A stretch of 64,000 bases of DNA from an uncultured Planctomycetales bacterium (lineage in GTDB: Bacteria > Omnitrophota > Gorgyraeia > Gygaellales > Profunditerraquicolaceae). Positions 19,029-34,746 of this stretch are shown piece after piece. The notes beneath the pieces are model-generated. The model searched no databases and had not been told where the DNA came from. It saw nothing but the letters and a program-made list of their open reading frames with translations. The position numbers and the translations under genes were made by a program. The first letter of the stretch is position 1; each line of letters begins with the position of its first letter. The stretch lies in contig CAZRVK010000006.1 of NCBI GenBank assembly GCA_964603585.1, forward strand, positions 23,650 through 87,649, in the 5' to 3' direction.

Positions 19029-20093
19029 ATGGATGATTTCCGGATCGATTCACAAAAAATAACCCATCATATCGGGGCGTTAAACAAATGGCTTAAAACG
19101 GGAGATGTTTATCCGATTTACGCGGAGATTTCTCCTTCTGGCACCTGCAACCACCGGTGCATATTTTGCGCTTTGGATTACCTGGAGTATAAGCCAAAAT
19201 TCATCGATACTCCGGCGGTAAAAAGATTTATTGCCGATGCCGCCAAGAAAGGTTTGCGCAGTATCATGTTTGCAGGAGAGGGGGAACCTCTTTTACATCC
19301 TGGTTTGATGGAGATGGTATCTTTTGCCCGCACTCATCTCGTGGATACGGCAATTACTACTAACGGGGTGTTGCTGGATAAGAATAACCTGTCGGTCATA
19401 TTGAATGATGCGAGTTGGCTTAGGATAAGTTTAAATGCGGCAACCCCTGAAAGTTATGCCCGTATCCATAGGGCGCGCCCGGAGGATTTCTTGCGAGTTT
19501 TGCATAATCTTCGTCTGGCAGTTTCCATGCGGCGCGCCAAGAATTACCAGTGTACTATCGGGGCCCAGATCCTTTTATTGGGTCAGAATATCCCGGATGC
19601 GGGGATACTGGCAAAGCTATGCCGCCAGATCGGGTTGGATTATCTGATCATCAAGCCTTATTCACAGCATCCGTTCAGTAAGAACCGTTTAAGTAAAACC
19701 GTGGATTACCGCAAACTTTTGATCCTGGAAAAGGAATTAGCGAAATTCAGCACTAAGGATTTTAAAGTGATCTTCAGACGGCATACAATGCAGAAGATAA
19801 TCTCCGGTCGTAATTACAAACAGTGTTATGCGCTTCCCTTTTGGACATATATCAGCGCTAATGCTGATGTCTATGCCTGCAGTGCTTTTTTAGGGGACAA
19901 ACGTTTTTGCCTCGGCAACATTACCCGGGAACGTTTCTTTCGGATATGGAATGGCAGAAGGCGCAAAAAACTCCTTAGGATGATGGCAAACACCTGGGAT
20001 ATAAATAATTGCCGGCAGGTTTGCCGGATGGATGAGATAAACCGTTATTTATGGGAGTTAAAGAACCCTCCCAGGCATGTCAATTTCATTTAA
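19029..20093 (+). CDS. Radical SAM enzyme (paralog 1) with conserved C-terminal WxLKxPPxHxNF motif
   Basis: CNHRCIFC (CxxxCxxC), GEGEP; C-terminal Cys cluster and LWELKNPPRHVNFI tail shared with 23403..24479. Confidence 0.7.
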   Translation: MDDFRIDSQKITHHIGALNKWLKTGDVYPIYAEISPSGTCNHRCIFCALDYLEYKPKFIDTPAVKRFIADAAKKGLRSIMFAGEGEPLLHPGLMEMVSFARTHLVDTAITTNGVLLDKNNLSVILNDASWLRISLNAATPESYARIHRARPEDFLRVLHNLRLAVSMRRAKNYQCTIGAQILLLGQNIPDAGILAKLCRQIGLDYLIIKPYSQHPFSKNRLSKTVDYRKLLILEKELAKFSTKDFKVIFRRHTMQKIISGRNYKQCYALPFWTYISANADVYACSAFLGDKRFCLGNITRERFFRIWNGRRRKKLLRMMANTWDINNCRQVCRMDEINRYLWELKNPPRHVNFI

Positions 20094-20862
20094 TAAAATG
20101 GCTGAAAAGAAATTTTTTCTGGCAGTAATCATGCCGGCGCTCAATGAAGAAAAAAACATCCGCCTGGCGGTGGGCAATGTTTTAAAGGCTTTTGACGATT
20201 TTCATATCGAAGGCGAAATCATTGTGGTAAATGATGGTTCAAAAGATAAAACCGGGGAGGTCGTCGAGTCGATGATGGCGGAGGAGCCAAGGATAAAAAT
20301 GATTAGGCATGAAAGGCCTTTGGGGATCGGGGCTTCTTTCTGGGATGGGGTGGATAATACCCAGGCGGATATCGTTGTAACTTTACCGGGGGATAATGAA
20401 AATGACCCCTGGGAGATATTCCGTTACTATCCTTTGCTTGAGCATGTGGATATCGTGATCCCCTTTATTTTCAATAAGGAGGCGCGTTCTTTGTTCAGGA
20501 ACGGCGTTTCTTATCTTTACCGGTTTATTATCAATACTACGTTTTTAGTCAATTTCAATTATACCAATGGCACGATCCTTTTCCGCCGCTTACTGCTAAA
20601 AGAACTGGGCCATCGCAGTCTAAGTTTTTTCTTCCAGACCGATATTTTGATCCGAACGGTAAAAAAAGGGTATTTGTTTGCCGAAGTGCCTTATCGGCTG
20701 GGGATTAGAAAAGACGGGGTTTCCAAGGCATTGTCTTTTCCGTCTTTTTTGCAAGTAGTAAAAGGGTATGTGCGCCTGGTAAAAGATTATTATTTTCAGA
20801 AAAATAACGGTTCTTCGACTATTTTTAGCAGTGGTTCGCAAACTGCATTACGCAGGGGTTAG
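20077..20862 (+). CDS. GT2 polyprenyl-phosphate sugar transferase (Dpm1-like)
   Basis: VIMPALNEE...VVNDGSKDKT GT-A motifs. Confidence 0.7.
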   Translation: MSISFNKMAEKKFFLAVIMPALNEEKNIRLAVGNVLKAFDDFHIEGEIIVVNDGSKDKTGEVVESMMAEEPRIKMIRHERPLGIGASFWDGVDNTQADIVVTLPGDNENDPWEIFRYYPLLEHVDIVIPFIFNKEARSLFRNGVSYLYRFIINTTFLVNFNYTNGTILFRRLLLKELGHRSLSFFFQTDILIRTVKKGYLFAEVPYRLGIRKDGVSKALSFPSFLQVVKGYVRLVKDYYFQKNNGSSTIFSSGSQTALRRG

Positions 20863-20866
20863 CAGT

Positions 20867-21694
20867 ATGTTTAGACGAAAAAAAGATGAACTTGAGAAAT
20901 ATGCCAGCCAGGCCAGAAGATTGATTATTGAAGTGGCTTGTAAGTCAAGAACTGCGCATGTGGGTTCGGCTCTGTCCTGTGTCGATATTTTAACCGCGCT
21001 TTATTTTCATGTATTGGATATAAATCCCCGCGCCTGGAAAAAAAGGGATATTTTGGTCTTAAGTAAAGGGCATGCTGCACTGGCATTGTATTCGATCCTG
21101 ACGGTTAAAGGGTTAATGAAGAAGGATGCCCTTTTGGGTTATTTGCAGGATAAGGGCAGTTTGCCGGCACATTTGGACAAGGTTACGAATAAATGGATCG
21201 AGGTATCCTGCGGTTCATTAGGTCATGGGTTCAATATGGCTTTAGGCCTGGCATATGGTTACAAGCTCAAAGGTATTAAACGCCGGGTAGTCGCTGTTAT
21301 TGGCGATGGAGAAACGCAAGAAGGGTCGGTTTGGGAAGGCGCATTGTTTGCCAGCCATCTTGGCATAGATAATTTTACCGCAGTGATCGATTATAATAAT
21401 TTACAGGGTTATGGCCGTCCGAGGGAGATCTGCCATTATGAGCCGGTAGCCGGTAAATGGAGGGCTTTTGGCTGGGAGGTAGATAAGGTCAATGGGCATG
21501 ATCATTATGCCCTGATTTCGGCCTTGGAGAAAAAACGTATTCAAGGCAAGCCAAGGGTGATTATTGCCGATACCACGAAAGGCAAGGGGGTGGATTTTAT
21601 GGAGGATCAGCTTAAATGGCATTATTTCATTGTTACCGATGAGCTGAAAGAAAAGGCGATGCAGCAATTATGCGCACCCCGGGGGATACGGTGA
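20867..21694 (+). CDS. Transketolase N-terminal (TPP-binding) subunit
   Basis: HVGSALSCVDILTALYF, GH, GSLGHG, VIGDGE motifs of split transketolase N-section; ATG 20867 just after upstream stop with AGGGG RBS. Confidence 0.8.
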   Translation: MFRRKKDELEKYASQARRLIIEVACKSRTAHVGSALSCVDILTALYFHVLDINPRAWKKRDILVLSKGHAALALYSILTVKGLMKKDALLGYLQDKGSLPAHLDKVTNKWIEVSCGSLGHGFNMALGLAYGYKLKGIKRRVVAVIGDGETQEGSVWEGALFASHLGIDNFTAVIDYNNLQGYGRPREICHYEPVAGKWRAFGWEVDKVNGHDHYALISALEKKRIQGKPRVIIADTTKGKGVDFMEDQLKWHYFIVTDELKEKAMQQLCAPRGIR

Positions 21695-22593
21695 GAAACA
21701 GTTTAGTCGATAAAATATACCAGCATGCCTGTAAAAACAGGAAAATATTCCTGATTACCGGAGATGCGGGGTTCGGGGTGCTGGATGAATTTAAAAAACG
21801 GTTTGGCCGGCGTTTCTTGAACCTGGGGATCGCTGAACAGAATATGATCGGGTTTGCCTCCGGGCTTTCCCTTGCAGGATACAAGGTTTTTGTTTATAAT
21901 ATTGTCCCGTTTGTTTTATACCGTTGTTTTGAACAGGTAAGAAACGATATTTGTTATCAGGATCTGCCGGTCACCTTGGTGGGTATTGGCAGCGGTGTTT
22001 CCTATGCCCCGGGCGGGGTAACGCATTATTCGGTTGAGGATGTTTCCCTGGCAAGGGCCTTGCCTAACCTTGTTATACTTTCTCCGGCTGATCCACAGGA
22101 GGCGCAGGCCTGTGTGGAATATGCGCTGAAAAGTAAATCACCTGTGTATATCCGTATCGCGAAAAATGGTGAACCAGCGATACATAAAAAAAAGATAAAA
22201 AGTGTCATTGAGCCGATTGTGGTAGGCGGCGGAGAACGAGTTGCGGTTTTATTCCATGGTTCTGTATCCTCTGATGTGATGCGTGCTGTGTCAGGCCTGG
22301 CGAGAAAACCGAGAGTGATTTCAGTCCCCATGCTCCAGCCTTTGAACTTTGCTGCGCTTAAGGCCTCCTTAAAAGGGATAGGTACCATTATTACGGTAGA
22401 GGAACATTTCTTGGAAGGTGGACTGGGAAGTATTATCGCGGAATGGATAGTCAGGGACAGGCTTAATTTTCGCCTAAAGAAACTGGGGATAAAGAATGAG
22501 TTTATCCATGCCATTCGCGATAATCCCGGGATGAGGCAGTTGTATGGAATTTCCAGCAGGCAGATTGCGGCAGTAATACGCGGGTCATTTTAA
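21670..22593 (+). CDS. Transketolase C-terminal (pyrimidine-binding) subunit
   Basis: FLNLGIAEQNMIGFASGLSLAG, DICYQDLPVTLVG motifs; overlaps N-subunit by ~25 nt. Confidence 0.75.
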   Translation: MRTPGDTVRNSLVDKIYQHACKNRKIFLITGDAGFGVLDEFKKRFGRRFLNLGIAEQNMIGFASGLSLAGYKVFVYNIVPFVLYRCFEQVRNDICYQDLPVTLVGIGSGVSYAPGGVTHYSVEDVSLARALPNLVILSPADPQEAQACVEYALKSKSPVYIRIAKNGEPAIHKKKIKSVIEPIVVGGGERVAVLFHGSVSSDVMRAVSGLARKPRVISVPMLQPLNFAALKASLKGIGTIITVEEHFLEGGLGSIIAEWIVRDRLNFRLKKLGIKNEFIHAIRDNPGMRQLYGISSRQIAAVIRGSF

Positions 22594-22613
22594 TAGGTAA
22601 AAAAGGGGTGAAA

Positions 22614-23384
22614 ATGTCAGATATCTCATTGCGCCATGAAAATGAAAAGTTGCAGAAAGAAGCGTTGGAGGCATTATTTCAAAGCAGTGGTATGAGCGAT
22701 TTTGAACGGTTCAGGAATTTTACGGTTTTTACCCCTCGGTATAATCTGGCGCGGTTTCTGCTGCATTATGAACTGTTTAAAAAGGTCTATGAGCTTCCGG
22801 GTGTGATCGTGGATTTAGGAGTATATCAGGGGGCATCGACGTTTACCTGGGCAAAACTTTGCGAGATCTTTTGCCCTACGGATGTGCGCAAAGTGGTTTA
22901 TGCCTTTGATACGTTTGCAGGTTTTCCCTCTTTAGCCAAGGAGGATGGCGGGCAGAGTAAGAAGGATGACCGTGTTGTTGGAGGATTTTATACGGGTGAA
23001 GCTATTGAGCGGGATCTGAAGCTGGCCCAGGAAGCGATGCGCCCGGATAAGCATATCCGGCATATCAACCGTATAGAATTTATAAAAGGTGATGCCATAA
23101 AAACCATACCTGCATTTGTCAAAGAAAAAGGCGCAGGGTTAAAGGTTGCTTTATTAAATATAGATTTCGATCTTTACGAGCCGACGAAGGTTGCTTTGGA
23201 AAACTTTGTACCTTTGATGGTACGAGGTGGGATAATTATTCTTGATGAATATGCACTGGAAACATTTGGCGGAGAGACCAAGGCTATAGACGAATATTTT
23301 AAAAAGGCGTTCGGCCAGGTGCCTAAAATCAAGAAATTCGGCTGGCACAGTGTTCCTTCGGGATATATTGAGGTTGATTGGTAA
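22614..23384 (+). CDS. TylF/MycF-family class I SAM-dependent (sugar) O-methyltransferase
   Basis: VDLGVYQGAST nucleotide-binding motif, DTFAGFP, NIDFDLYEPT typical of macrocin-O-methyltransferase family. Confidence 0.6.
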   Translation: MSDISLRHENEKLQKEALEALFQSSGMSDFERFRNFTVFTPRYNLARFLLHYELFKKVYELPGVIVDLGVYQGASTFTWAKLCEIFCPTDVRKVVYAFDTFAGFPSLAKEDGGQSKKDDRVVGGFYTGEAIERDLKLAQEAMRPDKHIRHINRIEFIKGDAIKTIPAFVKEKGAGLKVALLNIDFDLYEPTKVALENFVPLMVRGGIIILDEYALETFGGETKAIDEYFKKAFGQVPKIKKFGWHSVPSGYIEVDW

Positions 23385-23402
23385 GAAGAAAGGGCAGTAT
23401 TC

Positions 23403-24479
23403 ATGGATAAATATATGATGGAAGGCCATAAGCTTTTTTGGCATTTAGATCGGCTCCGGGCTTGGCAGAAGGAAGAGAAAATAGTTCCTTTGCATATGGA
23501 TATCGGCATATCTAAAGGATGCACTATCGGGTGTGTTTATTGTTACGGCGTTTTTCAGGGCAGGATCGGCCCGCAAGGCAAATTCATCCCTAAAGATGCG
23601 CTTTTACGGTTCATGAATGATGCGGCAGATTTAGGAGTCAAGGCGATCTCTATAACCGGAGAAGCCGAACCGACCATGAACCCCCACCTTTATGATGCGG
23701 TGGTAGTAGGCGCTAAAGCAGGTCTTGATTTAGGTTTAGCTACCTGGGGAGGTATGATCCAAGAAGACAGGATCACCGATCTGGCAAATAATCTGACCTG
23801 GATCAGGTTTAATATTAGTGCCGCTGCACCCGACAGCTACCAGAAGATCCACCGCACGACTAAAGAAAATTTCCATAAGGTCATCTCTAATATTGAGAAG
23901 TTAGTGCGTATTAAACGGCAAAATGATTTGAACATTACCATCGGCCTGCAAATGGTGACTATGCCATGGTATGCCGCGGAGTCCTTAAAGCTGGCAAAGT
24001 TAGGTAAAGATCTCGGGGTGGATTATCTGGAGATCAAACATTGTAGTGAGACTACTTCCGGGGACCTGGGGGTAAGGTTTGAAGAGTATCATAAGGTCGC
24101 GGATATCCTGAAAGAGGCAGAGAAGTATTCCGGCGGGCAATATGATGTGATCGTCAGGTGGAAGAAAATATTGCAAGGCAAGAAACGTAATTATGACCGT
24201 TGTTATTGTGCCGGTAATTTTATGCTTCGGATGTCAGGGGATGGTTCGGTTTATCCTTGTGCCCAGTTCTTTGACCTAAGAAGCGATGAATTTAAGGTCG
24301 GCAATATTACTGAACAGTCATTTAAGGATATTTTATATGGAGCGCGTTATTCGGAAGTCTTAAAACGGATACAACAGCTGGATGTGCATAATGAATGCTG
24401 CAGCGGATGCAAGGAGGATTCGATCAATGAATTCCTTTGGACGCTTAAACATCCTCCGCAACATTTGAATTTTGTTTAA
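23403..24479 (+). CDS. Radical SAM enzyme (paralog 2) with conserved C-terminal WxLKxPPxHxNF motif
   Basis: CTIGCVYC (CxxxCxxC), GEAEP; C-terminal Cys cluster and LWTLKHPPQHLNFV tail. Confidence 0.7.
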   Translation: MDKYMMEGHKLFWHLDRLRAWQKEEKIVPLHMDIGISKGCTIGCVYCYGVFQGRIGPQGKFIPKDALLRFMNDAADLGVKAISITGEAEPTMNPHLYDAVVVGAKAGLDLGLATWGGMIQEDRITDLANNLTWIRFNISAAAPDSYQKIHRTTKENFHKVISNIEKLVRIKRQNDLNITIGLQMVTMPWYAAESLKLAKLGKDLGVDYLEIKHCSETTSGDLGVRFEEYHKVADILKEAEKYSGGQYDVIVRWKKILQGKKRNYDRCYCAGNFMLRMSGDGSVYPCAQFFDLRSDEFKVGNITEQSFKDILYGARYSEVLKRIQQLDVHNECCSGCKEDSINEFLWTLKHPPQHLNFV

Positions 24480-24485
24480 AATCCA

Positions 24486-24983: not shown

Positions 24984-24989
24984 TTTCAT

Positions 24990-25514: not shown

Positions 25515-25518
25515 AGTC

Positions 25519-26205
25519 ATGTCAGCCGAAAACATAGTTTTAGCGGTTAAATGTGCCCCGGAAGAAAGGCTGTTGTCTTATGCCACGCGTGCGGGGATTC
25601 CGGCGGTTGAGTTGTACCTTTGCGGCGAGACTCTTAATCAAGCTGATGAGGTAGCCGCCTTATGTAAGGATTTTCATTTTCGCTATAGTATGCATGCCCC
25701 AAACGATGCTTATGAGCCAAAGAAACTTTCTTTTTTAGCCGGGGCAATTTCTGCCGAGGTGGTAGTGGCGCATAATATCTTCTGGGAAGATGAATGGAAA
25801 GAGATGATCTCCTGTTTTAAGGGGATCCCGGTAAAGCTTTGTGTAGAGAATATTACAACCGCGCACGAACCTTTGAAATTCATGCGCCGTTATGGCCTGG
25901 GATGCTGCCTGGACCTGGAGCATTTGCAGCTTGAGTGCGCCGGAGTTTATGAGGATGAATTCCTGCGTTTAATGAAAATCGCCTCATATGTTCATATGAC
26001 GGGTTATAAATACCCCTCGGAACTTTGGCATACCCATATACATCATTTACCCCGGCATAATGTTTATCTTCTTGACCTTTTATTGAAGGCAGGGTATTCC
26101 GGGTTTCTGGTGAGTGAAGCGAAAGTGGAAATGCAAAGTTATGATGAATTTAGCAAATTGCATGCTTTCTTTGAGTCATGGAAAGCCAAACATAAGGAAG
26201 GATAA
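25519..26205 (+). CDS. Xylose-isomerase-like TIM-barrel protein (sugar phosphate isomerase/epimerase family)
   Basis: Conserved His/Glu/Asp pattern (HAP, VENI, LDLEH, HMTG) of AP-endonuclease-2/xylose isomerase-like fold; weak. Confidence 0.4.
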   Translation: MSAENIVLAVKCAPEERLLSYATRAGIPAVELYLCGETLNQADEVAALCKDFHFRYSMHAPNDAYEPKKLSFLAGAISAEVVVAHNIFWEDEWKEMISCFKGIPVKLCVENITTAHEPLKFMRRYGLGCCLDLEHLQLECAGVYEDEFLRLMKIASYVHMTGYKYPSELWHTHIHHLPRHNVYLLDLLLKAGYSGFLVSEAKVEMQSYDEFSKLHAFFESWKAKHKEG

Positions 26206-26207
26206 GA

Positions 26208-27099: not shown

Positions 27100-27885
27100 A
27101 TGAAGACAGATATATTTTATTTTTCCGGTACGGGTAATTCCTTAAAAGTAGCCAGGGATATTCTGCAGCAGGTAAAAGATGGACAGGTTATAGCTATCCC
27201 TAAAGTGATATCTCAAGATTCGATAACTACGAATGCCGATAGGGTAGGGATCGTTTTTCCGGTATATATGTTTGGGGCACCTTTGATTGTAGTGGATTTT
27301 CTTAGGAAACTTAAACTTAACCAGGGGCAGTATATTTTTGCCGTAGTAACCTATGGAGGTTTGGCTGGAGGCACGTTGCAGCAGATTGAGCGCGAGCTTG
27401 CCAGGAAGGGGTTAAAACTGTCAGCCGGATTTGGCATAGCCATGCCAGGCAATTATACCCCGCTTTATGGCGCTAAACCATTAGCGGTGCAAAACAAGAT
27501 GTTTGAAAGAGAATATTCAAAGGTTAAGGCTATTTCCGATATTATCGAGGCCGGAAGGCCGTATCCTGTAGAAAAAGGGAATTTTCTTATAAACCTGATA
27601 TTTTCCGGATTATTGTATAACAGTTGTTCATCATCGATACCAAAGATGGACAGATCATTTTGGGTAGAAAATACCTGTACCGGCTGTCAGGTATGCGTAA
27701 AAGTCTGCCCGGTGGGAAATATTAAGCTTGCAGACGCAAAACCTGTCTGGCTGGGCAGGTGCCAGCAATGCCTGGCTTGTCTGCACTGGTGTCCCGAGGA
27801 AGCAATTCAGTTCGGCAGGAAAACGATTGGACGAAAACGTTACCGGATGCCGCAAATACAATTAAATGATCTTTTAAAAGATTGA
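27100..27885 (+). CDS. Flavodoxin-like domain fused to 2x[4Fe-4S] ferredoxin domain
   Basis: N-terminal FYFSGTGNS flavodoxin motif; C-terminal CTGCQVCVKVCP and CQQCLACLHWCP. Confidence 0.65.
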   Translation: MKTDIFYFSGTGNSLKVARDILQQVKDGQVIAIPKVISQDSITTNADRVGIVFPVYMFGAPLIVVDFLRKLKLNQGQYIFAVVTYGGLAGGTLQQIERELARKGLKLSAGFGIAMPGNYTPLYGAKPLAVQNKMFEREYSKVKAISDIIEAGRPYPVEKGNFLINLIFSGLLYNSCSSSIPKMDRSFWVENTCTGCQVCVKVCPVGNIKLADAKPVWLGRCQQCLACLHWCPEEAIQFGRKTIGRKRYRMPQIQLNDLLKD

Positions 27886-27898
27886 AAGAAAGCCGCTC

Positions 27899-28924
27899 AT
27901 GAGATGCCCTTCCTGCAGGTCAGAGAAAGCGAGAAATTCCTTTTATCCTGAACCGCATTTATTTTGTCCGGAGTGTTTACATTGCCGCAAGAGAAAGTTC
28001 CTGCGGGAGGTTCATTACAGTAATTTGTCGGGCCGGTCGAGAATGTTTGAGAAAAACCTGAAAAGGAAAAATAAGGAAAGGATCGCTTGCTTAAAGCCGT
28101 ATTTGGCCAAGGGAATGCAAATACTTGAGATCGGCTGTGCCGAAGGATCCATGGGGGAAGAGGTCAAACGTAAATTCCCGGTTATATATTCAGGAGTTGA
28201 ACCTTCCATGGACGCAAGGTTTGCTAGAACAAAACTTGATAAAGTCTGGGATTCAATGAACAGTATACCTAAAAAACAGCGTTTTGACCTTATTTTGGGG
28301 TTTCACGTGGTCGAACACGTTTACAATATTCAGCGTTTTATTGTCAGACTGCATGCTTTACTTAAGGATGACGGGGTTGTGGTGCTTGAGGCCCCTAATC
28401 ATTCCGGATCCAGGCGGTTGAGCTGGGATTTTAACCGGGAACATACGCATTTATTTACTCCATTATCTATTATATCTTTACTGGAAAAAAACGGGTTTAA
28501 CCTTCGGCAATTGAGTACAGGCCATTATGAGTCGGAAATTTATAATGATTCGATCCGGGCAGTTTGCGATAAGAAACGCAAGGCGGAGTATGTAACTCAT
28601 GATCTGGTTGAGCGTTTTTACCGGTATTTGGGCCGCCGGTGTGTTATTTACGGCGCGGGAGGCGATTTAAAGTCTTTAGTCCTTCCATACATCAAGCGAT
28701 CCAGAATATTGGCTGTTATCGATAGCGCAAAGGATAAGATAAAGACTACTGTATCAGGGCATATTATTCAGGGCCCGGAACAAGCCGGAAAATATAAGAA
28801 TGAAAGGTTTCTTGTCGCCACATTACGGTATCAAGATGAGATTACAGACACGCTTATCAAAAAAGGGGTTTGCCGGTCTAATATTGTTACCTTGGAAGAT
28901 ATATTAGGTCCCGAAGAAACCTGA
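27899..28924 (+). CDS. Class I SAM-dependent methyltransferase with N-terminal Zn-ribbon (sugar C-methyltransferase-like)
   Basis: CPSC...CPEC zinc ribbon, ILEIGCAEGSMG motif I, hydrophobic acidic motif II; architecture like TylCIII family but shorter. Confidence 0.55.
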   Translation: MRCPSCRSEKARNSFYPEPHLFCPECLHCRKRKFLREVHYSNLSGRSRMFEKNLKRKNKERIACLKPYLAKGMQILEIGCAEGSMGEEVKRKFPVIYSGVEPSMDARFARTKLDKVWDSMNSIPKKQRFDLILGFHVVEHVYNIQRFIVRLHALLKDDGVVVLEAPNHSGSRRLSWDFNREHTHLFTPLSIISLLEKNGFNLRQLSTGHYESEIYNDSIRAVCDKKRKAEYVTHDLVERFYRYLGRRCVIYGAGGDLKSLVLPYIKRSRILAVIDSAKDKIKTTVSGHIIQGPEQAGKYKNERFLVATLRYQDEITDTLIKKGVCRSNIVTLEDILGPEET

Positions 28925-28929
28925 CGTTT

Positions 28930-29991
28930 ATGGATAATCCAGAATTCGACCGGACAGACAGGTTAAATACCCGCCAGAGGCTGAAAAACGAGAAGCCAGC
29001 CGTATATGAGAAGTTTGTTCGGCTTGACCAAAGGCCAAACCAGGGGGGGCCTTTTAGCCCGGTGATCGAGATCGCTTACCGCTATGATTGTAACCTTCGT
29101 TGCCGGCATTGTTTTGCCAGCCGGTTTGAGAAAAAGAAACGCAGCCTTTCCTTGGATGACCTAAGGGGATTATCTTTACAAGCTGGCCAGATGGGGGTAT
29201 ATCAATTCATTCTGCAAGGAGGGGAACCGCTCTTTTGGCCCGATTTAGATGCGGTGGTTAGTGCTATCAATCCAAAAGAATTTTATTTAGGGTTAGTTAC
29301 TAATGCGTCATTATTGAATAAAGAAAAGATCATTCACCTTCGGGAGATAGGCATCGATAAGATTGTGATCAGCCTGGATTCTTATGATATGCTTCAGTAC
29401 GAACAGAATCGTAACCGTCCGGGATTATTCAATCATACGCTTGACATGCTGATTCTGGCTAAAAGTGCCGGGTTGCGGGTTGTCATTAATACCCTGCTTA
29501 CAAAAGAAAATGTCAGGTCCGCAAAGCTCCTGGAATTGATCGAGTTTGCCAAGAGGCATTCATTCTTTGTTTATACTAATTTCGCGACTCCTATCGGCAG
29601 TTGGCAGGGGCGCTATGACCTGTTGCTTGACGAGGATGATGCAAAGTATATTTATGATCTAAGCCTAAAGCATAAAGTAGTAAAGCGGGATATTTTTCCG
29701 TATATGGGGCAGAAAGTGGGATGTCCGGCGATCAGGTCGGTAGTATATATTACCCAATACGGTGATGTGCTTCCCTGCCCCTTCATACATATTTCTATCG
29801 GCAATATATTCGAATCTGATTTACCCCGGATCATTGAACAGGGTATGAGGCTGAAATGCTTTAAAGAACAGTCTGGGGTATGCCTGGCTTGTGAAGACCG
29901 CGATTTTATCAGGCAGAAGATCTCCAGGGTATATGATAGATCTTCTCCTGTCCCGATGGATGAGATCTTCGATAAGGATGAATTTTGTTGA
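28930..29991 (+). CDS. Radical SAM / SPASM-domain enzyme
   Basis: CNLRCRHC, QGGEP; C-terminal CPAIRS...CPF...CLAC SPASM-type Cys spacing. Confidence 0.7.
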   Translation: MDNPEFDRTDRLNTRQRLKNEKPAVYEKFVRLDQRPNQGGPFSPVIEIAYRYDCNLRCRHCFASRFEKKKRSLSLDDLRGLSLQAGQMGVYQFILQGGEPLFWPDLDAVVSAINPKEFYLGLVTNASLLNKEKIIHLREIGIDKIVISLDSYDMLQYEQNRNRPGLFNHTLDMLILAKSAGLRVVINTLLTKENVRSAKLLELIEFAKRHSFFVYTNFATPIGSWQGRYDLLLDEDDAKYIYDLSLKHKVVKRDIFPYMGQKVGCPAIRSVVYITQYGDVLPCPFIHISIGNIFESDLPRIIEQGMRLKCFKEQSGVCLACEDRDFIRQKISRVYDRSSPVPMDEIFDKDEFC

Positions 29992-29995
29992 TCCT

Positions 29996-31045
29996 ATGGC
30001 GATAAAAAAGTATTCACAACTTCGTGATCCTGCGCGTAAAAGTTTAGAGAGGTTATTGCCTCTAAAATACCCGATCAGCCTGTATATCGAAACGACCAAT
30101 AGGTGTAATTTCCGTTGCCGTTATTGTCCGCTGTCTCTTGGCGATTATTCGAAGGTTGCTGGAGGGTTCAATGATTTAAGTCTGGACAGGTTCGGCGAGA
30201 TTTCTCGGCAGATCAAAAAATGGCCCAGGTTAAAGGTTTTGCGTTTTTATTTTATGGGTGAGCCTTTATTGAATCCTGCTTTGCCGCAAATGATCAGGAC
30301 AGCGTCTTTAAATAAATTGGCCGAACGCACAGAATTGACGACCAATGCTTCGCTTCTTGATGCGAAGAGGTCATTGGCATTGATCCATTCCGGCCTGGAT
30401 TATCTTCGGATAAGCATTTCAAGCGTTAGCGACTTACGGCATAAACATATTACGCAGACCAGTTTTTCCGTGGACAATATCCGCGGGAATGTGGAGTTAT
30501 TTTGGCTGATGCGCTCTGCTTTAGGCAAAAAGAAGCCGTTTATCTATGTCAAAATGCTGGATTCCTTTAACGTTTTCGAGAACTCAAGATTTATTAAGCT
30601 GTACAAGAATATATCCGATGAGGCAGTGATCGAGAAACCAATGAATTGGGATGGATACAAAAAGCATGATTTTCTATCTTCGGTCTATAAAACCAAGCAA
30701 GAGGCAGTTTTAAAGAGATTATATCCTTACCCTAAAGTTGTGTGCCCATTCCCTTTTTATAACCTTATGATAAACGCAAATGGGGATGTTACTGTTTGCT
30801 GCGTTGACTGGAACCGTTCAACACAGGTAGGGAATGTTTTTAAAAATAGTTTGGGGGAAATCTGGAACGGTAAGCGCCTGCGCGATTTCCGGCGCATGCA
30901 ATTTTCGGGTAATCGCAAGGCAAATCCATCGTGCGCTAATTGCCAGTTTTTATTCACAACTCCGGACAACCTGGATAATATCCGTCCGGAGAATATCGAC
31001 AGTATCCTTGGGTTAAGGCAAAAGGGAGTAAAGGAGAAGGCTTGA
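29996..31045 (+). CDS. Radical SAM / SPASM-domain enzyme
   Basis: CNFRCRYC; C-terminal CPFPF...VCCVDW...CANCQF; start moved to ATG 29996 right after upstream stop. Confidence 0.7.
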   Translation: MAIKKYSQLRDPARKSLERLLPLKYPISLYIETTNRCNFRCRYCPLSLGDYSKVAGGFNDLSLDRFGEISRQIKKWPRLKVLRFYFMGEPLLNPALPQMIRTASLNKLAERTELTTNASLLDAKRSLALIHSGLDYLRISISSVSDLRHKHITQTSFSVDNIRGNVELFWLMRSALGKKKPFIYVKMLDSFNVFENSRFIKLYKNISDEAVIEKPMNWDGYKKHDFLSSVYKTKQEAVLKRLYPYPKVVCPFPFYNLMINANGDVTVCCVDWNRSTQVGNVFKNSLGEIWNGKRLRDFRRMQFSGNRKANPSCANCQFLFTTPDNLDNIRPENIDSILGLRQKGVKEKA

Positions 31046-32547: not shown

Positions 32548-32575
32548 ACTTTGTGTGCACATGTAAGAGGGTTGT

Positions 32576-33793
32576 ATGGATAAAAAAAAGAAGATAAAAA
32601 AAGTCATCCGGGCCTGCCCGATCTGTTTAGGGGGCTCTGGGGAATTACTGTATGAACAAAGGTTCCATCTTTATCAGGGGCATTGCCTTTTGGATGCTTA
32701 TGATGTCGTTTCCTGCATAAAATGCGGGTTTGTTTATGCAGATAGTGGAGCTACCCAGAAAGACTATAATCGTTACTATAGCGAGTTTTCCAAGTATGAG
32801 AATTCTCTTGCTCCCGGAGGCCTGGTTAATCAGTGTGATTTAGATAAGTATGAACGGATGGTGCATGACCTGTCGAAGATCATCCCGGATAAGAATACTT
32901 CAATCTTGGATATTGGATGCGCTAAAGGCGGATTACTGGCAACTTTTAAGGCGCATGGATATAATGATCTTACCGGGCTGGATCCTTCTTTAAATTGTGT
33001 CGCGCAGGTTAAGGCGCAGGGTATCCCTGCTTTGCAGGGCGGATTGTTCTTGGATAATTTCCCGCAAGGCTTCCTAAAACAGGCTTTTGATTGTGTGATC
33101 GTTTCTCACGTGCTCGAGCATGTTTATGATCTATCCACTGCTGTCAAGAATGCCTTTTCTCTGGTTAAAACCGGGGGATTTTTATATCTTGAAGTCCCGG
33201 ATTCTTCCCGTTATACTCAATATTATGTTGCTCCATACCATTATTTCGATTTTGAGCATATTAATCATTTTGATCTGTGTTCGTTGAACAACCTGTTTGT
33301 TAAAAGCCATTCGGAATATGTTGCTTCTGGCAAGAAGGACCTGCAGCATTCGAATACTGTATATTATCCTGCAGTTTATTCGGTTTATCGCAAATGCGAT
33401 GGTTTGGTTTTAGACAGAGAGATTGTTTCAGATCAGAATTTGAGGGACAATGTCATTAGGTATATCGAAATGTCCCGTCAGGCGGATCATTGGCGGGAGT
33501 TAGATGAGCTTGCCGCCTCGAAGGAAGCGATCGTGGTTTGGGGTGCGGGGGCGTATGCTTTGCGTCTTTACCGGATGAGCCCTTTAAGCGAGTGTAATAT
33601 TATCAGTTTTATCGATAATGACCTTAAAAAGAGACAGGCAGTGTTTGCTACTAATGTAACAGTTAAATTACCAAAAGAAGTTTTGCCGGATTTTAAAGGC
33701 ACGATCGTTGTTTGTTCTGCGGTGTATAATAATGAGATCGTAAAAGAGATCGATGGAATGCGGTTGAATAACCGGGTGGTTGTTTTAAAATAA
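32576..33793 (+). CDS. NDP-hexose C-methyltransferase-like (TylCIII architecture: Zn-ribbon + MTase + C-methyltransferase C-terminal domain)
   Basis: CPICLG...CIKCGF zinc ribbon, ILDIGCAKGGLL motif I, VSHVLEHV, 405 aa as expected for TylCIII-like enzymes. Confidence 0.6.
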   Translation: MDKKKKIKKVIRACPICLGGSGELLYEQRFHLYQGHCLLDAYDVVSCIKCGFVYADSGATQKDYNRYYSEFSKYENSLAPGGLVNQCDLDKYERMVHDLSKIIPDKNTSILDIGCAKGGLLATFKAHGYNDLTGLDPSLNCVAQVKAQGIPALQGGLFLDNFPQGFLKQAFDCVIVSHVLEHVYDLSTAVKNAFSLVKTGGFLYLEVPDSSRYTQYYVAPYHYFDFEHINHFDLCSLNNLFVKSHSEYVASGKKDLQHSNTVYYPAVYSVYRKCDGLVLDREIVSDQNLRDNVIRYIEMSRQADHWRELDELAASKEAIVVWGAGAYALRLYRMSPLSECNIISFIDNDLKKRQAVFATNVTVKLPKEVLPDFKGTIVVCSAVYNNEIVKEIDGMRLNNRVVVLK

Positions 33794-33810
33794 GGGAAGG
33801 CAGGTCGAAT

Positions 33811-34746
33811 ATGTCAGGTAAGCTGATCAGCATTGTTACCCCATGTTATAATGAAGAAGAAAATGTCGAGGCAGTTTATACAGAAGTTAAAGCGGTCTTT
33901 GAGAAGATACACGGATATTGTCGGGAGCATATTTTTATAGACAATTCATCCGAGGATAATACGGTAAAGATCCTGCGTAAGATCGCTGAATCTGACAAGA
34001 ATGTGAAAGTGATCATAAATACCAGGAACTTTGGGCATATTCGTTCCGGCGCTTACGGGTATCTGCAGTCAAGAGGCGATGCGGTGATCCCGGTGGTTGC
34101 GGATTTACAGACCCCACCTGATTTAATCCCGGAGTTTATCAGGAAATGGGAACAGGGATATAAGGTTGTTGTGGGGATAAGAAAAAAGGCCCAGGGTTCA
34201 ATTATACTTTCTTTTGCGGGGAAGTTGTATTATAAGATCATCAGCAAGCTCTCGGATACGCAGTTGATCCATGATTTTATGGGGTATGGTCTGTTTGACC
34301 GTAAGGTTATCGAGATCATTAGAGAGATGCATGATCCATATCCTTATATCCGGGGATTGATCTCGGAAATCGGTTTTAAAACCGCCCAAATAGAATATAT
34401 CCAGCCGGCACGTAAAAGAGGATTAACCAAAAATAATTTTTTTACCTTATACGATATGGCGATGCTTGGGATCACCAATTATTCCAAGATACCTTTAAGG
34501 CTGGCGACAATGTTGGGGTTTATATTTTCCGTGGTTAATATCCTTATCGCGATAGGATATTTTATTTACAAACTTATATCCTGGCAGACATTTTCAGTGG
34601 GGGTGGCTCCGATAGTTATAGGGCTTTTTTTGTTTTCTTCGGTGCAACTGTTTTTTTTGGGGATCCTGGGGGAGTATGTTGGTTCGATCCATACCCAGGT
34701 ATTAAAAAGGCCGTTGGTGATCGAGGAGGAACGCATTAATTTTTAA
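33811..34746 (+). CDS. GT2 polyprenyl-phosphate sugar transferase with two C-terminal TM helices (ArnC/GtrB-like)
   Basis: IVTPCYNEEEN, IDNSSEDNT, C-terminal TM pair. Confidence 0.7.
   Translation: MSGKLISIVTPCYNEEENVEAVYTEVKAVFEKIHGYCREHIFIDNSSEDNTVKILRKIAESDKNVKVIINTRNFGHIRSGAYGYLQSRGDAVIPVVADLQTPPDLIPEFIRKWEQGYKVVVGIRKKAQGSIILSFAGKLYYKIISKLSDTQLIHDFMGYGLFDRKVIEIIREMHDPYPYIRGLISEIGFKTAQIEYIQPARKRGLTKNNFFTLYDMAMLGITNYSKIPLRLATMLGFIFSVVNILIAIGYFIYKLISWQTFSVGVAPIVIGLFLFSSVQLFFLGILGEYVGSIHTQVLKRPLVIEEERINF

Follow-up and report, generated by a model that had tools for sequence, protein, structure and literature searches.

Radical SAM enzymes and a widespread candidate sugar-tailoring cassette in a surface-glycan locus of an Omnitrophota bacterium

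The window analysed here, a 64,000-nucleotide stretch of contig CAZRVK010000006.1 from an uncultured Omnitrophota bacterium, contains seven radical SAM (rSAM) genes between 9.2 and 32.5 kb, set among genes for glycan assembly. The closest named homologs come from Omnitrophota MAGs, and the exact protein is also present on a metagenome contig. This arrangement of rSAM genes raises the question of whether the seven enzymes form a single pathway, and whether they act on carbohydrates or on peptides.

Radical SAM genes of the glycan locus

A preliminary description had counted seven CxxxCxxC radical SAM proteins, and the profile-HMM check bears out the count. Each ORF exceeds the Pfam Radical_SAM gathering score and carries one motif.

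9223-10371, + strand: radical SAM (Radical_SAM 72 bits, Fer4_12)
19029-20093, + strand: radical SAM, rSAM-A (Radical_SAM 64 bits, SPASM)
23403-24479, + strand: radical SAM, rSAM-B (Radical_SAM 56 bits, SPASM)
26208-27056, + strand: rSAM-C, a small radical SAM of high conservation whose C-terminal domain is rich in Cys (Radical_SAM 39.6 bits, Fer4_12)
28930-29991, + strand: accessory radical SAM/SPASM enzyme (Radical_SAM 83 bits, SPASM 28 bits)
29891/29933/29996-31045, + strand: accessory radical SAM/SPASM enzyme (Radical_SAM 55 bits, SPASM 63.9 bits; start ambiguous, gene caller chose 29933)
31042-32547, + strand: B12-binding (class B) radical SAM (Radical_SAM 74 bits, B12-binding 51.6 bits)

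The proteins at 19029 and 23403 are paralogous over their full length, as had been proposed (32% identity, E 5e-66), and the B12-binding assignment of 31042 is likewise sound. The SPASM label holds for 28930 and 29996, although not for these two exclusively, as 19029 and 23403 are also SPASM-type. Radical SAM genes account for 7 of the 28 genes in 8.2-34.7 kb versus 1 of 36 in the rest of the window (Fisher's exact p = 0.01), the lone outlier being a LipA-like gene at 54844. Assuming that 2% of genes are radical SAM, the binomial probability of the clustering is 1e-6. The clustering is not due to chance, and the high density is a recurring pattern: other uncultured anaerobes have related glycan loci that likewise hold three or more rSAMs.

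The glycan genes of the window (five GT2, GT9, YfhO, RfbH, NeuB-family and SDR) are all encoded on one strand, and the gaps do not exceed 52 bp. Those upstream of the main rSAM group are as follows.

657..2453, + strand: YerE-like candidate C2-branching enzyme, ALS-like, TPP/FAD (Pfam TPP_enzyme_N/M/C)
2486..4000, + strand: NeuB-family sugar-PEP condensing enzyme with fused cupin domain (Pfam NeuB 129.9 bits, Cupin_2)
4602..5489, + strand: NAD-dependent sugar epimerase/reductase, SDR (Pfam Epimerase 81.9 bits)
5520..6863, + strand: RfbH, CDP-4-keto-6-deoxy-D-glucose 3-dehydrase of 3,6-dideoxyhexose pathways (NCBIfam NF011936 690 bits, cut-off 423; Pfam DegT 303.7 bits)
8167..11366, + strand: separate module of GT2 8167-8892, DUF2304 membrane protein 8889-9260, radical SAM 9223-10371 and GT2 10386-11366 (Pfam)
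12678..18120, + strand: membrane machinery, with small single-TM proteins at 12678 and 13140, 13648-15405 (~8 TM), 15406-16653 (~7 TM) and YfhO-family GT-C 16657-18120 (hydropathy scan; Pfam)

The YerE-like enzyme scores 385 bits against the NCBIfam acetolactate synthase model, short of the cut-off of 538. The NeuB-family protein does not reach the cut-offs of the NCBIfam NeuB and PseI equivalog models, and the best NCBIfam match of the SDR is weak (ADP-glyceromanno-heptose 6-epimerase, 68.6 bits, cut-off 274.6). Judged by sequence, the pairing of RfbH with the YerE-like enzyme (657-6863) indicates a second branched sugar, a putative yersiniose-type 3,6-dideoxyhexose. The module at 8167..11366 and the membrane block, in which YfhO is the sole Pfam match, both keep their synteny in another Omnitrophota locus (L004). 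The module is linked to the core cassette described below in just 2 of 84 loci, and relatives of its radical SAM occur in other GT-rich loci.

Homologous clusters that always hold a RiPP precursor had been named as evidence for peptide chemistry, and none of the 82 related loci contains one. Within the window, too, the earlier remark that no plausible precursor is visible stands: the largest intergenic gap in 8-35 kb is 52 bp and every small ORF there is nested within a larger gene. The radical SAM ORFs have no RiPP recognition domain, there being no room for one because the cluster motif begins at residue 21-54, and none of the NCBIfam RiPP-maturase models is matched above its cut-off. rSAM-A occurs naturally fused to an ALS-like TPP enzyme (P0257, 951 aa), to SIS_2 (a GmhA-like SIS domain), to a CTP_transf_like nucleotidyltransferase (three proteins), to a DegT aminotransferase and to a methyltransferase. 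These catalytic partners are all sugar-pathway enzymes, and the sole other fusion is an intein insertion. Taken together, the results support carbohydrates, not peptides, as substrates, the option previously favoured.

A core cassette shared among distant bacteria

The core cassette at 18105-27056 comprises GT9, rSAM-A, a TPP enzyme, an ArnC/GtrB-like GT2, rSAM-B, two membrane proteins (m1 and m2) and rSAM-C, and these genes are syntenic across related loci. The region contains, besides the three rSAMs:

18105..19028, + strand: GT9-family glycosyltransferase, heptosyltransferase family (Pfam Glyco_transf_9 47.6 bits, cut-off 22)
20077..20862, + strand: polyprenyl-phosphate-type GT2, ArnC/GtrB/DPMS-like (Pfam; closest solved chains ArnC, GtrB, DPMS)
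20831..22593, + strand: TPP enzyme of transketolase/DXS-like type, split into 20831-21694 (N part) and 21670-22593 (pyrimidine-binding and C-terminal part) (Pfam)
22608..23384, + strand: TylF-family O-methyltransferase (Pfam PF05711 44.7 bits, cut-off 23)
24486-24983 and 24990-25514, + strand: two membrane proteins, each with three TM segments and a soluble C-terminal domain
25519..26205, + strand: possible xylose-isomerase-like TIM-barrel protein (Pfam AP_endonuc_2 23.9 bits)

The earlier annotations of the split transketolase, the TylF-like methyltransferase and the GT2 enzymes at 20077 and 33811 stand. The TIM-barrel sugar isomerase is a possible assignment only, scoring below the Pfam cut-off of 31.1; its homologs (~52% identity) occur in 5 related loci.

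The core, shared by many phyla of anaerobic bacteria, is found in at least 80 species genomes from more than 10 phyla. Homologs of rSAM-A with 45-57% identity lie in 80 listed GTDB species genomes, drawn from 510 tblastn-confirmed candidates, and the hosts include Omnitrophota, Planctomycetota/Brocadiaceae, Thermodesulfobacteriota, Nitrospirota, Elusimicrobia, Bacillota and the cultured Helicobacter cinaedi. Plasmid pDCAR1 of Solidesulfovibrio carbinolicus carries a copy within a pse/NeuB locus. A literature search found no published description of the cassette, in keeping with the earlier suggestion of an undescribed pathway. The seven enzymes are, however, neither one pathway nor peculiar to this locus: 19029, 23403 and 26208 belong to the widespread cassette, 9223 to a separate module, and 28930, 29996 and 31042 are accessory. 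No cassette enzyme reaches the cut-off of a curated NCBIfam equivalog model, so every activity assigned to the cassette is a prediction.

At the core of the cassette, rSAM-A has one Twitch-like domain for an auxiliary cluster. Its invariant cysteines are 40, 44 and 47, and 266, 284, 328 and 332; the region of the latter four aligns to the Twitch segment of BtrN (residues 158-236). The structure model has a pLDDT of 90.9, and the family comprises 1,642 clusters (50% identity) at E<=1e-30.

Gene presence in related loci was scored within +/-10 kb, on contigs many of which are truncated. On this basis rSAM-B is present in 39-41 loci and the GT2 at 20077 in 33-53; the GT2 occurs with rSAM-B in 28 of 33 and usually adjoins it. 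The first of the 3-TM proteins is found in 15 loci and the second in 12, always with the first. They have no Pfam match and are distant paralogs (28% identity over 93 aa, E 4e-4).

The TPP slot and the upstream module

In 72 of 77 loci the gene for a TPP enzyme lies no more than 3.5 kb downstream of rSAM-A: E1 alpha/beta in 35, split transketolase in 32, ALS-like in 4 and both in 1. The three types are interchangeable occupants of one slot. The split enzyme of the window matches the NCBIfam transketolase and DXS models below their cut-offs, and homologs of the YerE-like enzyme at 657..2453 (37-44% identity) fill the slot beside rSAM-A in four loci (L025, L034, L069 and L077). E1 alpha/beta and YerE provide precedent for TPP-dependent C2 branching of keto-sugars (PMC4802897). 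The C-branched sugar of the preliminary description thus gains support from three interchangeable families, two of which (E1 alpha/beta and ALS/YerE-type) are known to add C2 branches to keto-sugars, and from RfbH, above its equivalog cut-off, beside the YerE-like enzyme. The C2 units of transketolase-type and pyruvate-decarboxylating TPP enzymes normally differ, so treating the three types as equivalent is an assumption.

Upstream, related loci carry either GT9 and rSAM-C or an HldE-like and a GmhA-like gene, never both (0 of 31 and 0 of 34 loci). GT9 is present in 31-33 loci (~61% identity) and accompanies rSAM-C in 20 of 23. rSAM-C homologs share 60-72% identity, with invariant cysteines 21, 25, 208, 224, 252, 258 and 261; C28, which completes the radical SAM motif as its third cysteine, is kept in at least 90% of sequences. 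Its structure model (pLDDT 91.2) matches generic SPASM/Twitch folds only. In 33-34 loci rSAM-A is directly preceded by the GmhA-like and HldE-like genes.

This link to heptose metabolism through GT9 and the GmhA-like and HldE-like genes had been overlooked. No GmhA-like or HldE-like gene was found in the window, so the link at this locus rests on GT9, which scores below the cut-offs of the heptosyltransferase I/II/III models, and on the related loci. AbmJ sets a precedent as an rSAM with a heptose substrate (PMC9978623). The GmhA-like and HldE-like proteins may instead use a different ketose phosphate: both fall below their own cut-offs, and the HldE-like protein has a swapped domain order.

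A proposed pathway and its decoration

Beyond the cassette, the glycan block continues to 34746, downstream of which lie housekeeping genes.

27100..27885, + strand: EFR1-family flavodoxin-ferredoxin (NCBIfam NF038196 266.7 bits, cut-off 75; Pfam Flavodoxin_5, Fer4)
27899..28924, + strand: Zn-ribbon and class I methyltransferase with C-terminal domain (Pfam Methyltransf_23 85 bits; N-terminal CxxC...CxxC)
32576..33793, + strand: second Zn-ribbon and class I methyltransferase (Pfam Methyltransf_23 80.4 bits; N-terminal CxxC...CxxC)
33811..34746, + strand: GT2 of GtrB/ArnC architecture, with two TM helices at the C-terminus (Pfam Glycos_transf_2 85.6 bits; TM at residues 227 and 255)

The flavodoxin-ferredoxin, recognized previously and confirmed by the EFR1 model, probably donates electrons to the rSAM clusters and is not conserved alongside the cassette. 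The methyltransferases, 28% identical over the core, had been called TylCIII-like C-methyltransferases. Their Zn-ribbon and methyltransferase domains are confirmed, but neither matches Pfam Methyltransf_13 or Methyltransf_14, and the likeness to the sugar 3-C-methyltransferases KijD1 and TcaB9 (PDB) is weak and confined to the core (E 0.0015-0.02). Orthologs of rSAMs 28930, 29996 and 31042 were not found in related loci. 28930..29991 reaches no NCBIfam cut-off and has relatives of only ~26% identity in 4 related loci; 29891..31045 is not conserved there. The B12-rSAM is below all NCBIfam cut-offs, and of the solved chains MgmA, AprD4 and TokK are closest to it; it is a candidate C-methylase. 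The deoxygenation and C-methylation earlier ascribed to radical chemistry are putative activities of the rSAMs. Among 131 ORFs sampled near the cassette, 17 are B12-rSAM paralogs, more than for any other accessory type.

From the observed gene content, conservation, linkage, fusions and absence of peptide features, we infer a substrate and a series of chemical steps, and give the reading as a whole a probability of about one half. It holds that the region forms the distal half of a modular surface-glycan operon of ~35 kb on a single strand; that its core is an as yet uncharacterised sugar-tailoring cassette, widespread and exchanged horizontally, with rSAM-A and a TPP-dependent C2-transferring enzyme as its invariant heart; that this cassette modifies an NDP-heptose-type sugar, first generating a carbonyl by radical chemistry and then adding C2 in a TPP-dependent step; and that the 27-35 kb part is lineage-specific decoration.

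In this scheme, one of the two mutually exclusive front modules would supply or deliver the sugar: a dedicated HldE-like/GmhA-like activation pair or, as in the window, the GT9 heptosyltransferase-family enzyme with its partner rSAM-C. rSAM-A would take hydrogen from the nucleotide-activated heptose-type sugar and create a carbonyl, by dehydrogenation (as BtrN and anSME) or by radical dehydration (as DesII, AprD4 and viperin). The TPP enzyme would then add a two-carbon acyl-anion unit to this carbonyl, much as YerE, AviB1/B2 and Plm8/9 act on 4-keto sugars, giving a C2-branched or C2-extended higher sugar. A second arm of ArnC/GtrB-like GT2, rSAM-B and the two 3-TM proteins may load a sugar on polyprenyl phosphate, modify it and pass it on to GT-C enzymes, namely YfhO and the polytopic pair at 13.6-16.6 kb, to be attached in the periplasm. 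The block at 27100-34746 would decorate further, with EFR1 as reductant, two SPASM/Twitch rSAMs, the B12-rSAM (probable C-methylation), two Zn-ribbon methyltransferases and a GtrB-like GT2. The product is probably an unusual sugar, heptose-type and branched.

Gene content of the glycan block

All of the approximately 64 genes in the window lie on the + strand. GC content is even throughout (0.40–0.47), GC skew is positive in every 2-kb bin (0.09–0.22), and the strand bias, complete over 64 kb, is unusual. From 44 to 34746 the genes form a single packed block, where gaps do not exceed 52 bp and many starts overlap the preceding stop. Annotation of the block with Pfam and NCBIfam gives the following genes, listed by start position or range, strand, and assignment.

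657, +, ALS-like TPP flavoenzyme
2486, +, NeuB-family enzyme fused to a cupin
4602, +, SDR
5520, +, RfbH (NCBIfam NF011936, 690 bits; cut-off 423)
6796, +, S41 peptidase
8167, 8889, 9223, and 10386, +, GT2, DUF2304, radical SAM, and GT2, in that order
11373, +, TPR protein
12678 and 13140, +, two small single-TM proteins
13648 and 15406, +, two polytopic membrane proteins
16657, +, YfhO GT-C
18105, +, GT9
19029–20093, +, radical SAM enzyme, denoted rSAM-A
20077, +, GT2
20831 and 21670, +, split transketolase
22608, +, TylF-like methyltransferase
23403–24479, +, radical SAM paralog of rSAM-A, denoted rSAM-B
24486 and 24990, +, two 3-TM proteins
25519, +, weak TIM-barrel match
26208–27056, +, radical SAM enzyme, denoted rSAM-C
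27100, +, EFR1 flavodoxin-ferredoxin
27899, +, Zn-ribbon methyltransferase
28930 and 29891/29996, +, two radical SAM/SPASM enzymes
31042, +, B12-binding radical SAM
32576, +, second Zn-ribbon methyltransferase
33811, +, GtrB-type GT2

From 34799 on, the genes are housekeeping, among them TMEM175, DAHP synthase, a Na/H exchanger, RmlD-like, PMI, NikR, CbiMQO, ThyX, the glycine cleavage system, LipB, LipA, a two-component system, and phosphate uptake. Some 10 kb past the gene for the B12-dependent radical SAM enzyme, 44342–48898 encodes NikR, an OprB-family porin, and a CbiM/CbiQ/CbiO ECF cobalt transporter; this region may bear on cobalamin or cobalt supply.

The preliminary description counted seven radical SAM enzymes in the block, and the Pfam/NCBIfam annotation bears this out, with one CxxxCxxC motif per ORF and PF04055 scores of 39.6–83 bits against a cut-off of 29.5. 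Its assignment of 28930 and 29996 as SPASM-type also stands, though not for these alone, as PF13186 (SPASM/Twitch) exceeds 21.5 bits in 19029, 23403, 28930, and 29891/29996. The sixth radical SAM ORF has an ambiguous start: GTG 29891 gives the longest ORF and overlaps the preceding gene by 100 bp, 29933 is the public gene call, and ATG 29996 was the earlier choice. Radical SAM genes make up 7 of 28 genes in 8.2–34.7 kb versus 1 of 36 elsewhere in the window (Fisher p = 0.01), and the binomial chance of that density is 1e-6 at a 2% background. The density once taken as a mark of this locus is thus real but not peculiar to it, since GT-rich loci of 9223 relatives carry at least two extra radical SAM genes and the plasmid pDCAR1 at least four. 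The sole other radical SAM gene of the window is LipA-like. This eighth ORF (54844–55734, motif CTRLCSFC) adjoins a LipB/LplA-like ligase (the two together span 54036–55734), with gcvT, gcvH, gcvP1, and gcvP2 (49878–54160) as neighbors, and is almost certainly lipoyl synthase, unconnected with the glycan block.

The 22608 protein belongs to the TylF O-methyltransferase family (PF05711, 44.7 bits versus 23). The 27899 and 32576 proteins had been called TylCIII-like, a label to which Methyltransf_13 and Methyltransf_14 lend no support: the TylCIII/TcaB9/KijD1 architecture (Methyltransf_13 Zn domain, class I methyltransferase, C-terminal Methyltransf_14) was not found in either, only Methyltransf_23 and similar models matching, and in the PDB the alignments with KijD1 and TcaB9 are limited to the core (E 0.0015–0.02), with an N-terminal CxxC...CxxC present. 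The match behind the proposed TIM-barrel isomerase at 25519 lies under the Pfam threshold. EFR1 at 27100 scores 266.7 bits with NF038196 over its full length (subfamily threshold 75) and, going by what is generally known of radical SAM activation, is a plausible dedicated reductant of the radical SAM clusters. The 31042 protein has class B architecture (PF02310 51.6 bits, PF04055 74.3 bits), lies under all curated family cut-offs (best, BchE, 176 bits versus 481), and has MgmA, AprD4, and TokK as nearest solved chains. GenK, GenD1, and Fom3 are class B radical SAM methylases acting on sugars or aminoglycosides. The 31042 protein shares the B12-binding and radical SAM architecture of these and of TokK, and differs in lacking a match above a curated-family cut-off and an ortholog in the related loci.

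A conserved core and its partners across phyla

A protein identical to rSAM-A is encoded on a 144-kb NCBI contig, and one identical to the B12-binding radical SAM enzyme on a 14-kb contig of the public run SRR15237810. The nearest named homologs of rSAM-A share 51–58% identity, and nearly all belong to MAGs of Candidatus Omnitrophota. When one genome per GTDB species was scanned with a degenerate pattern, 510 relatives were confirmed. The best 80 of these align over their full length at 45–57% identity, and their hosts are Omnitrophota, Planctomycetota including anammox Brocadiaceae, Thermodesulfobacteriota, Nitrospirota, Elusimicrobia, Bacillota, Arcobacteraceae, a few archaeal MAGs, and Helicobacter cinaedi CCUG 18818. 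The whole family spans more than 1,600 sequence clusters. A plasmid search gave one close match, pDCAR1 of Solidesulfovibrio carbinolicus DSM 3852 (44.6% identity to rSAM-A), where the copy sits inside a pseB/pseF/NeuB-family locus and the cassette genes are annotated merely as ‘radical SAM protein’, ‘SIS domain’, or ‘PfkB kinase’. A full-text literature search, from which most subscription journals were absent, returned no description of the cassette, and public annotations are generic.

Conservation was measured by tblastn of each window protein against the related loci, with presence or absence scored within ±10 kb on contigs that are often truncated.

Conservation of core genes in related loci (gene, start position, loci with a match, mean identity)
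GT9, 18105, 31–33 loci, 61%
GT2, 20077, 33–53 loci, 47%
Split transketolase, 20831 / 21670, 37 / 24 loci, 41% / 36%
rSAM-B, 23403, 41 loci, 41%
3-TM pair, 24486 / 24990, 16 / 12 loci, 36% / 40%
TIM-barrel-like, 25519, 5 loci, 52%
rSAM-C, 26208, 23–25 loci, 59%

In the same comparison, 27100, 27899, 28930, 29996, 32576, and 33811 show no conservation with these genes, 31042 meets paralogs alone (~27% identity), and the 8167–18120 block is syntenic in close Omnitrophota relatives only, such as the one carrying locus L004. Based on this pattern across related loci, the sequence is divided into three parts: a conserved core at 18105–27056 (the cassette), a separate GT2-DUF2304-radical SAM module at 8167–11366, and lineage-specific decoration at 27100–34746. 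Homologs of 9223–10371 in two GT-rich loci of unrelated MAGs (L087 and L088) stand beside a GLF/amino-oxidase-like FAD enzyme and two more radical SAM genes, which suggests a second recurrent radical SAM glycan module. A Pfam census of 131 random non-core ORFs near the cassette found Radical_SAM in 20, 17 of them with a B12-binding domain, along with SIS_2 (11), PfkB (8), CTP_transf_like (8), epimerases, dehydratases, DegT, and methyltransferases.

A regular neighbor of rSAM-A is a TPP enzyme, which follows within 3.5 kb in 72 of the 77 loci having at least 1.5 kb of sequence past rSAM-A. Its type varies: 35 loci have E1 alpha/beta pairs, 32 split transketolases, 4 ALS-like enzymes homologous to window gene 657, and one has two types. 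The window transketolase has all three Pfam domains (N, pyrimidine-binding, and C) spread over its two ORFs; the best transketolase model gives 227 bits versus 488, and the C half matches DXS equally well. A role for transketolase as a mere supplier of sedoheptulose-7-phosphate is rejected because E1 alpha/beta and ALS-like enzymes take its place in about half of the loci.

Upstream of rSAM-A, two arrangements occur. In 33–34 related loci the directly preceding ORFs encode GmhA-like isomerases (33; ~100 bits versus an NCBIfam cut-off of 209) and HldE-like proteins (34; ~150 bits versus 521). The HldE-like proteins (e.g., L023 7861–9396 and L010 8421–9998, both in related loci) have the adenylyltransferase N-terminal and the PfkB kinase C-terminal, opposite to canonical HldE. 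Across 82 loci these genes never occur together with GT9 (31) or rSAM-C (23), which are found together in 20. Owing to this mutual exclusion, the two sets are regarded as alternative front modules for one core. The window belongs with the GT9/rSAM-C loci; its 64 kb contain neither a GmhA-like nor an HldE-like gene. A GT9 domain is clear in 18105 (PF01075, 47.6 bits versus 22), which lies under the heptosyltransferase I/II/III equivalogs (29–42 bits versus cut-offs of 135–185). The cassette shares the GT9 family, and its alternative form the GmhA-like and HldE-like genes, with the ADP-heptose pathway (GmhA, HldE, GmhB, HldD, WaaC/WaaF). It differs from that pathway in its members scoring under equivalog cut-offs, its reversed HldE-like order, and the exclusivity of GT9 and GmhA/HldE. 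We know of no radical SAM or TPP enzymes in canonical heptose pathways.

The third pairing joins rSAM-B to GT2 20077, which co-occur in 28 of 33 loci. The nearest solved relatives of the GT2 are the polyprenyl-phosphate glycosyltransferases ArnC, GtrB, and DPMS. The locus resembles three-component periplasmic glycosylation (a GtrB/ArnC GT2, a small flippase, and a GT-C such as GtrC, ArnT, or YfhO) in having GT2s 20077, 33811 (with two C-terminal TM helices), and 8167 (by DUF2304), and in its GT-C candidates, the YfhO-family 16657 and two polytopic proteins. It is unlike those systems in that no GtrA-family flippase was detected in the locus and GT2 20077 has a radical SAM enzyme and two novel 3-TM proteins as its partners; these 3-TM proteins and DUF2304 are candidate flippases.

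Two related loci illustrate other arrangements. The cultured pathogen H. cinaedi CCUG 18818 (L084, 9039–20964) has rSAM-C, rSAM-A, fused and split transketolase, an SDR, rSAM-B, a methyltransferase, another radical SAM gene, and a Methyltransf_13-type methyltransferase (the Zn-domain type of sugar C-methyltransferases). Three short ORFs there resemble a broken second rSAM-A copy, and no glycosyltransferase is among the annotated ORFs of the 21.5-kb locus. On a 1.6-Mb Omnitrophota contig (L002, 1–21065), genes for T2SS/type IV pili, four pilin-like genes, and a gene for an STT3-family oligosaccharyltransferase of 857 aa immediately precede a cassette of GT9, rSAM-A, E1 alpha/beta, GT2, and rSAM-C. 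After the cassette comes a HEAT-repeat protein longer than 1,861 aa. The arrangement hints at protein (pilin?) glycosylation in that genome.

Enzyme family and substrate class

The invariant cysteines of rSAM-A in 21 sequences are those of the radical SAM motif (40, 44, and 47) and exactly four more (266, 284, 328, and 332), where a full SPASM domain with two auxiliary clusters has 7–8 C-terminal cysteines. The C-terminal domain is predicted to be Twitch-like with one auxiliary cluster, and its segment aligns with residues 158–236 of BtrN, the Twitch domain (profile E 1e-9). The AlphaFold model is confident (pLDDT 90.9), and its PDB neighbors mix peptide and sugar enzymes: SuiB, DesII (TM up to 0.71), SkfB, anSME, BlsE, MoaA, and viperin, with anSME and BtrN matching no better than SuiB and DesII. 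No radical SAM enzyme of the block reaches any curated NCBIfam family cut-off; for the DesII equivalog TIGR04426 (at least 450 bits), 19029 scores 37.3 and 23403 scores 28.5 bits. The rSAM-C protein is strongly conserved (60–72% identity), with five invariant C-terminal cysteines and no Pfam SPASM (PF13186) match.

Like rSAM-A, the sugar enzymes BtrN and SpeY (Twitch dehydrogenases), DesII, AprD4, BlsE, AbmJ, HygY, and viperin consist of a radical SAM core followed by a C-terminal auxiliary-cluster domain. DesII, BlsE, BtrN, and viperin appear among the sequence or fold matches of rSAM-A, and identity to carbohydrate-acting radical SAM enzymes is 12–18%. The cassette differs from their pathways in having three conserved radical SAM enzymes plus accessories; to our knowledge, those pathways use one or two, none of which works with a TPP enzyme. 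AbmJ acts on a heptose (PMC9978623).

Among 1.84 billion representatives searched by profile, rSAM-A occurs in fusions with a SIS_2 GmhA-like domain (one protein, P0246), with a cytidylyltransferase-like domain (in three proteins), with an entire ALS-like TPP enzyme (P0257, 951 aa), with a DegT sugar aminotransferase, and with a methyltransferase. The ALS fusion repeats the linkage of rSAM-A to TPP enzymes seen between genes. None of the fusion partners is peptide-related, and all catalytic ones are sugar enzymes. In another homolog (P0312, 631 aa), an intein splicing domain lies just before or within the radical SAM core.

SPASM and Twitch enzymes are known best as peptide maturases, and top fold matches include SuiB, SkfB, CteB, and anSME, so that the block could be imagined to crosslink or modify a peptide or protein that the glycosyltransferases then glycosylate; the L002 cassette beside pilin genes and an oligosaccharyltransferase would suit such a role. 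The earlier failure to find a precursor peptide is, however, confirmed. A six-frame scan of the window placed every small ORF within annotated genes. Clustering of 801 intergenic small ORFs around the cassette in 82 loci gave a largest cross-locus cluster of three members, which are GmhA-like fragments, and the seemingly conserved small ORFs in these loci are fragments of GmhA-like or PfkB genes only. An N-terminal RiPP recognition element is not possible because CxxxCxxC starts at residue 21–54 (in 31042, after the B12 domain). All RiPP-maturase models of NCBIfam score far under cut-off, leader peptidase and exporter are absent, and the fusions point to sugars throughout. RiPP or protein maturation is thus very improbable, being essentially excluded by these results from the window and the 82 loci. 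Lipid modification of the Tes, HpnJ, HpnR, or ladderane type is also rejected, since matches are weak and partial and the context is entirely glycan. A carbohydrate substrate is well supported, and we place the probability that the cassette tailors carbohydrate at about 0.8.

Proposed pathway, alternatives, and significance

The finding is best understood as a cluster for nucleotide-sugar tailoring whose radical SAM–TPP core has not been described before. In the proposed pathway, an NDP-heptose-type sugar would come from the dedicated HldE-like/GmhA-like pair or, in GT9-type loci, from the cell's own pool. The rSAM-A enzyme would turn it into a carbonyl compound by oxidation or dehydration, to which the TPP enzyme would join a C2 unit. 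Methyltransferases, reductases, and further radical SAM enzymes would complete the sugar, which GT9 with rSAM-C, or another transferase, would install. GT2 20077, rSAM-B, and the two 3-TM proteins probably handle a polyprenyl-phosphate-linked sugar, bound for the YfhO-type and other GT-C enzymes at 13.6–18.1 kb. This model is the simplest that accounts for the linkage rules and fusions; we infer its activities, and as a whole it stands at roughly even odds, any single chemical step being more doubtful than not.

Thiamine-dependent branching of sugars has precedents. E1 alpha/beta and ALS-type (YerE) enzymes add a pyruvate-derived C2 branch to 4-keto nucleotide sugars in yersiniose, eurekanate, and paulomycose (PMC4802897). 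YerE, AviB1/AviB2 (avilamycin eurekanate), and Plm8/Plm9 (paulomycose) resemble the cassette in placing an ALS-like or E1 alpha/beta-like TPP enzyme within a sugar pathway, and the same two families occupy the slot next to rSAM-A. The cassette is unlike them in that its TPP enzyme is coupled, and sometimes fused, to a Twitch-type radical SAM enzyme, a split transketolase/DXS-like enzyme is a third option, and the context points to heptose rather than 6-deoxyhexose. In those pathways, as far as we know, NAD-dependent 4,6-dehydratases provide the keto acceptor and no radical SAM enzyme is involved. In the yersiniose route the RfbH 3-dehydrase acts before YerE, and the window also has RfbH, with the ALS-like enzyme 657 nearby. 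No gene for an E3 reductase, CDP-glucose synthase, or 4,6-dehydratase was found in the window, whose first position already lies within the locus. Genes 657–6863 (ALS-like, NeuB-cupin, SDR, and RfbH) look like part of a yersiniose-type pathway with its first genes upstream of the window, and RfbH paired with an enzyme resembling YerE suggests that there is a second sugar, a branched 3,6-dideoxyhexose like yersiniose.

A bolder and tentative reading, doubtful on present evidence, takes rSAM-A and its TPP partner as a previously unknown radical/carbanion tandem of anaerobes from more than 10 phyla. It would convert NDP-heptose (or hexose) into C2-branched or C2-extended sugars of 8–10 carbons, of the yersiniose, erwiniose, or caryophyllose type, with GT9 and rSAM-C versus the HldE-like and GmhA-like genes as alternative entry modules. 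If so, few known surface sugars would be tailored by radical enzymes as heavily as the one encoded by the dense radical SAM complement of this Omnitrophota locus.

The radical SAM enzymes could instead come in at a late stage and modify sugars already linked to polyprenyl phosphate, or the polymer or lipid once assembled (by epimerization or methylation after transfer, for example), rather than soluble nucleotide sugars. The pairing of rSAM-B with an ArnC/GtrB/DPMS-like GT2 and two membrane proteins, the three such GT2s and GT-C enzymes in the locus, and the place of 9223 between a GT2-DUF2304 pair and another GT2 are consistent with this. Yet all of the radical SAM enzymes are predicted to be soluble, with no TM segment; H. 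cinaedi keeps rSAM-C, rSAM-A, and rSAM-B with no annotated glycosyltransferase in its locus; and for rSAM-A, fusion to soluble sugar-phosphate and nucleotide-sugar enzymes contradicts late action, which is rather unlikely in general and most plausible for rSAM-B only. If chains were built on sugar phosphates, rSAM-A would act on the sugar phosphate, before nucleotide activation. The LmbR/N/P/K/O pathway builds the lincosamide GDP-octose by such chain building. The TPP enzyme would transfer a C2 unit to an aldose phosphate, giving a higher ketose phosphate, and the GmhA-like and HldE-like enzymes would activate the product after rSAM-A. Their genes immediately upstream of rSAM-A, the SIS fusion P0246, and the transketolase/DXS-like nature of the split enzyme argue for it. 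However, E1 alpha/beta and ALS-like enzymes substitute for transketolase whichever front module is present, pyruvate as donor would give 1-deoxy-ketoses unusable by an aldose-ketose isomerase, GT9-type loci such as the window lack the isomerase and kinase entirely, and nucleotidyltransferase fusions outnumber the SIS fusion 3 to 1; chain building of this kind is unlikely.

The seven enzymes might also have no functional unity, having piled up as unrelated tailoring enzymes in a hypervariable surface-polysaccharide island of an anaerobe, where they simply stand in for O2- or NAD-dependent enzymes. Omnitrophota polysaccharide cassettes are reported to be hypervariable (bioRxiv 10.64898/2026.06.07.730766). 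Of the seven, no more than three are conserved as a group, 9223 is part of a different module, 28930, 29996, and 31042 have no orthologs in the related loci, and other glycan loci of uncultured anaerobes also carry at least three radical SAM genes. Against this, tight linkage within the rSAM-A/TPP, GT9/rSAM-C, and GT2/rSAM-B pairs recurs across phyla, in part as fusions, and the genes lie in one translationally packed operon with a putative dedicated reductant. As a full account it is decidedly unlikely; it is compatible with the modular part of the radical SAM–TPP model, being true of the accessory genes and not of the three linked pairs.

Radical SAM sugar chemistry has so far come from a handful of antibiotic pathways with one or two such enzymes each. 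Here, a conserved cassette of three sits in cell-surface glycan loci and is coupled to thiamine-dependent C–C bond formation. The family is spread over many phyla, and databases name the cassette enzymes ‘radical SAM protein’ only. Two carriers are in culture, H. cinaedi CCUG 18818 and S. carbinolicus DSM 3852 (pDCAR1), which makes the question directly testable. Omnitrophota are nano-sized, host-dependent bacteria. If the inferred chemistry is right, the cassette would define a new way in which anaerobes make sugars that are branched or have more carbons, provide candidates for the still unsolved biosynthesis of such sugars in LPS, and bear on the surface biology of Omnitrophota.
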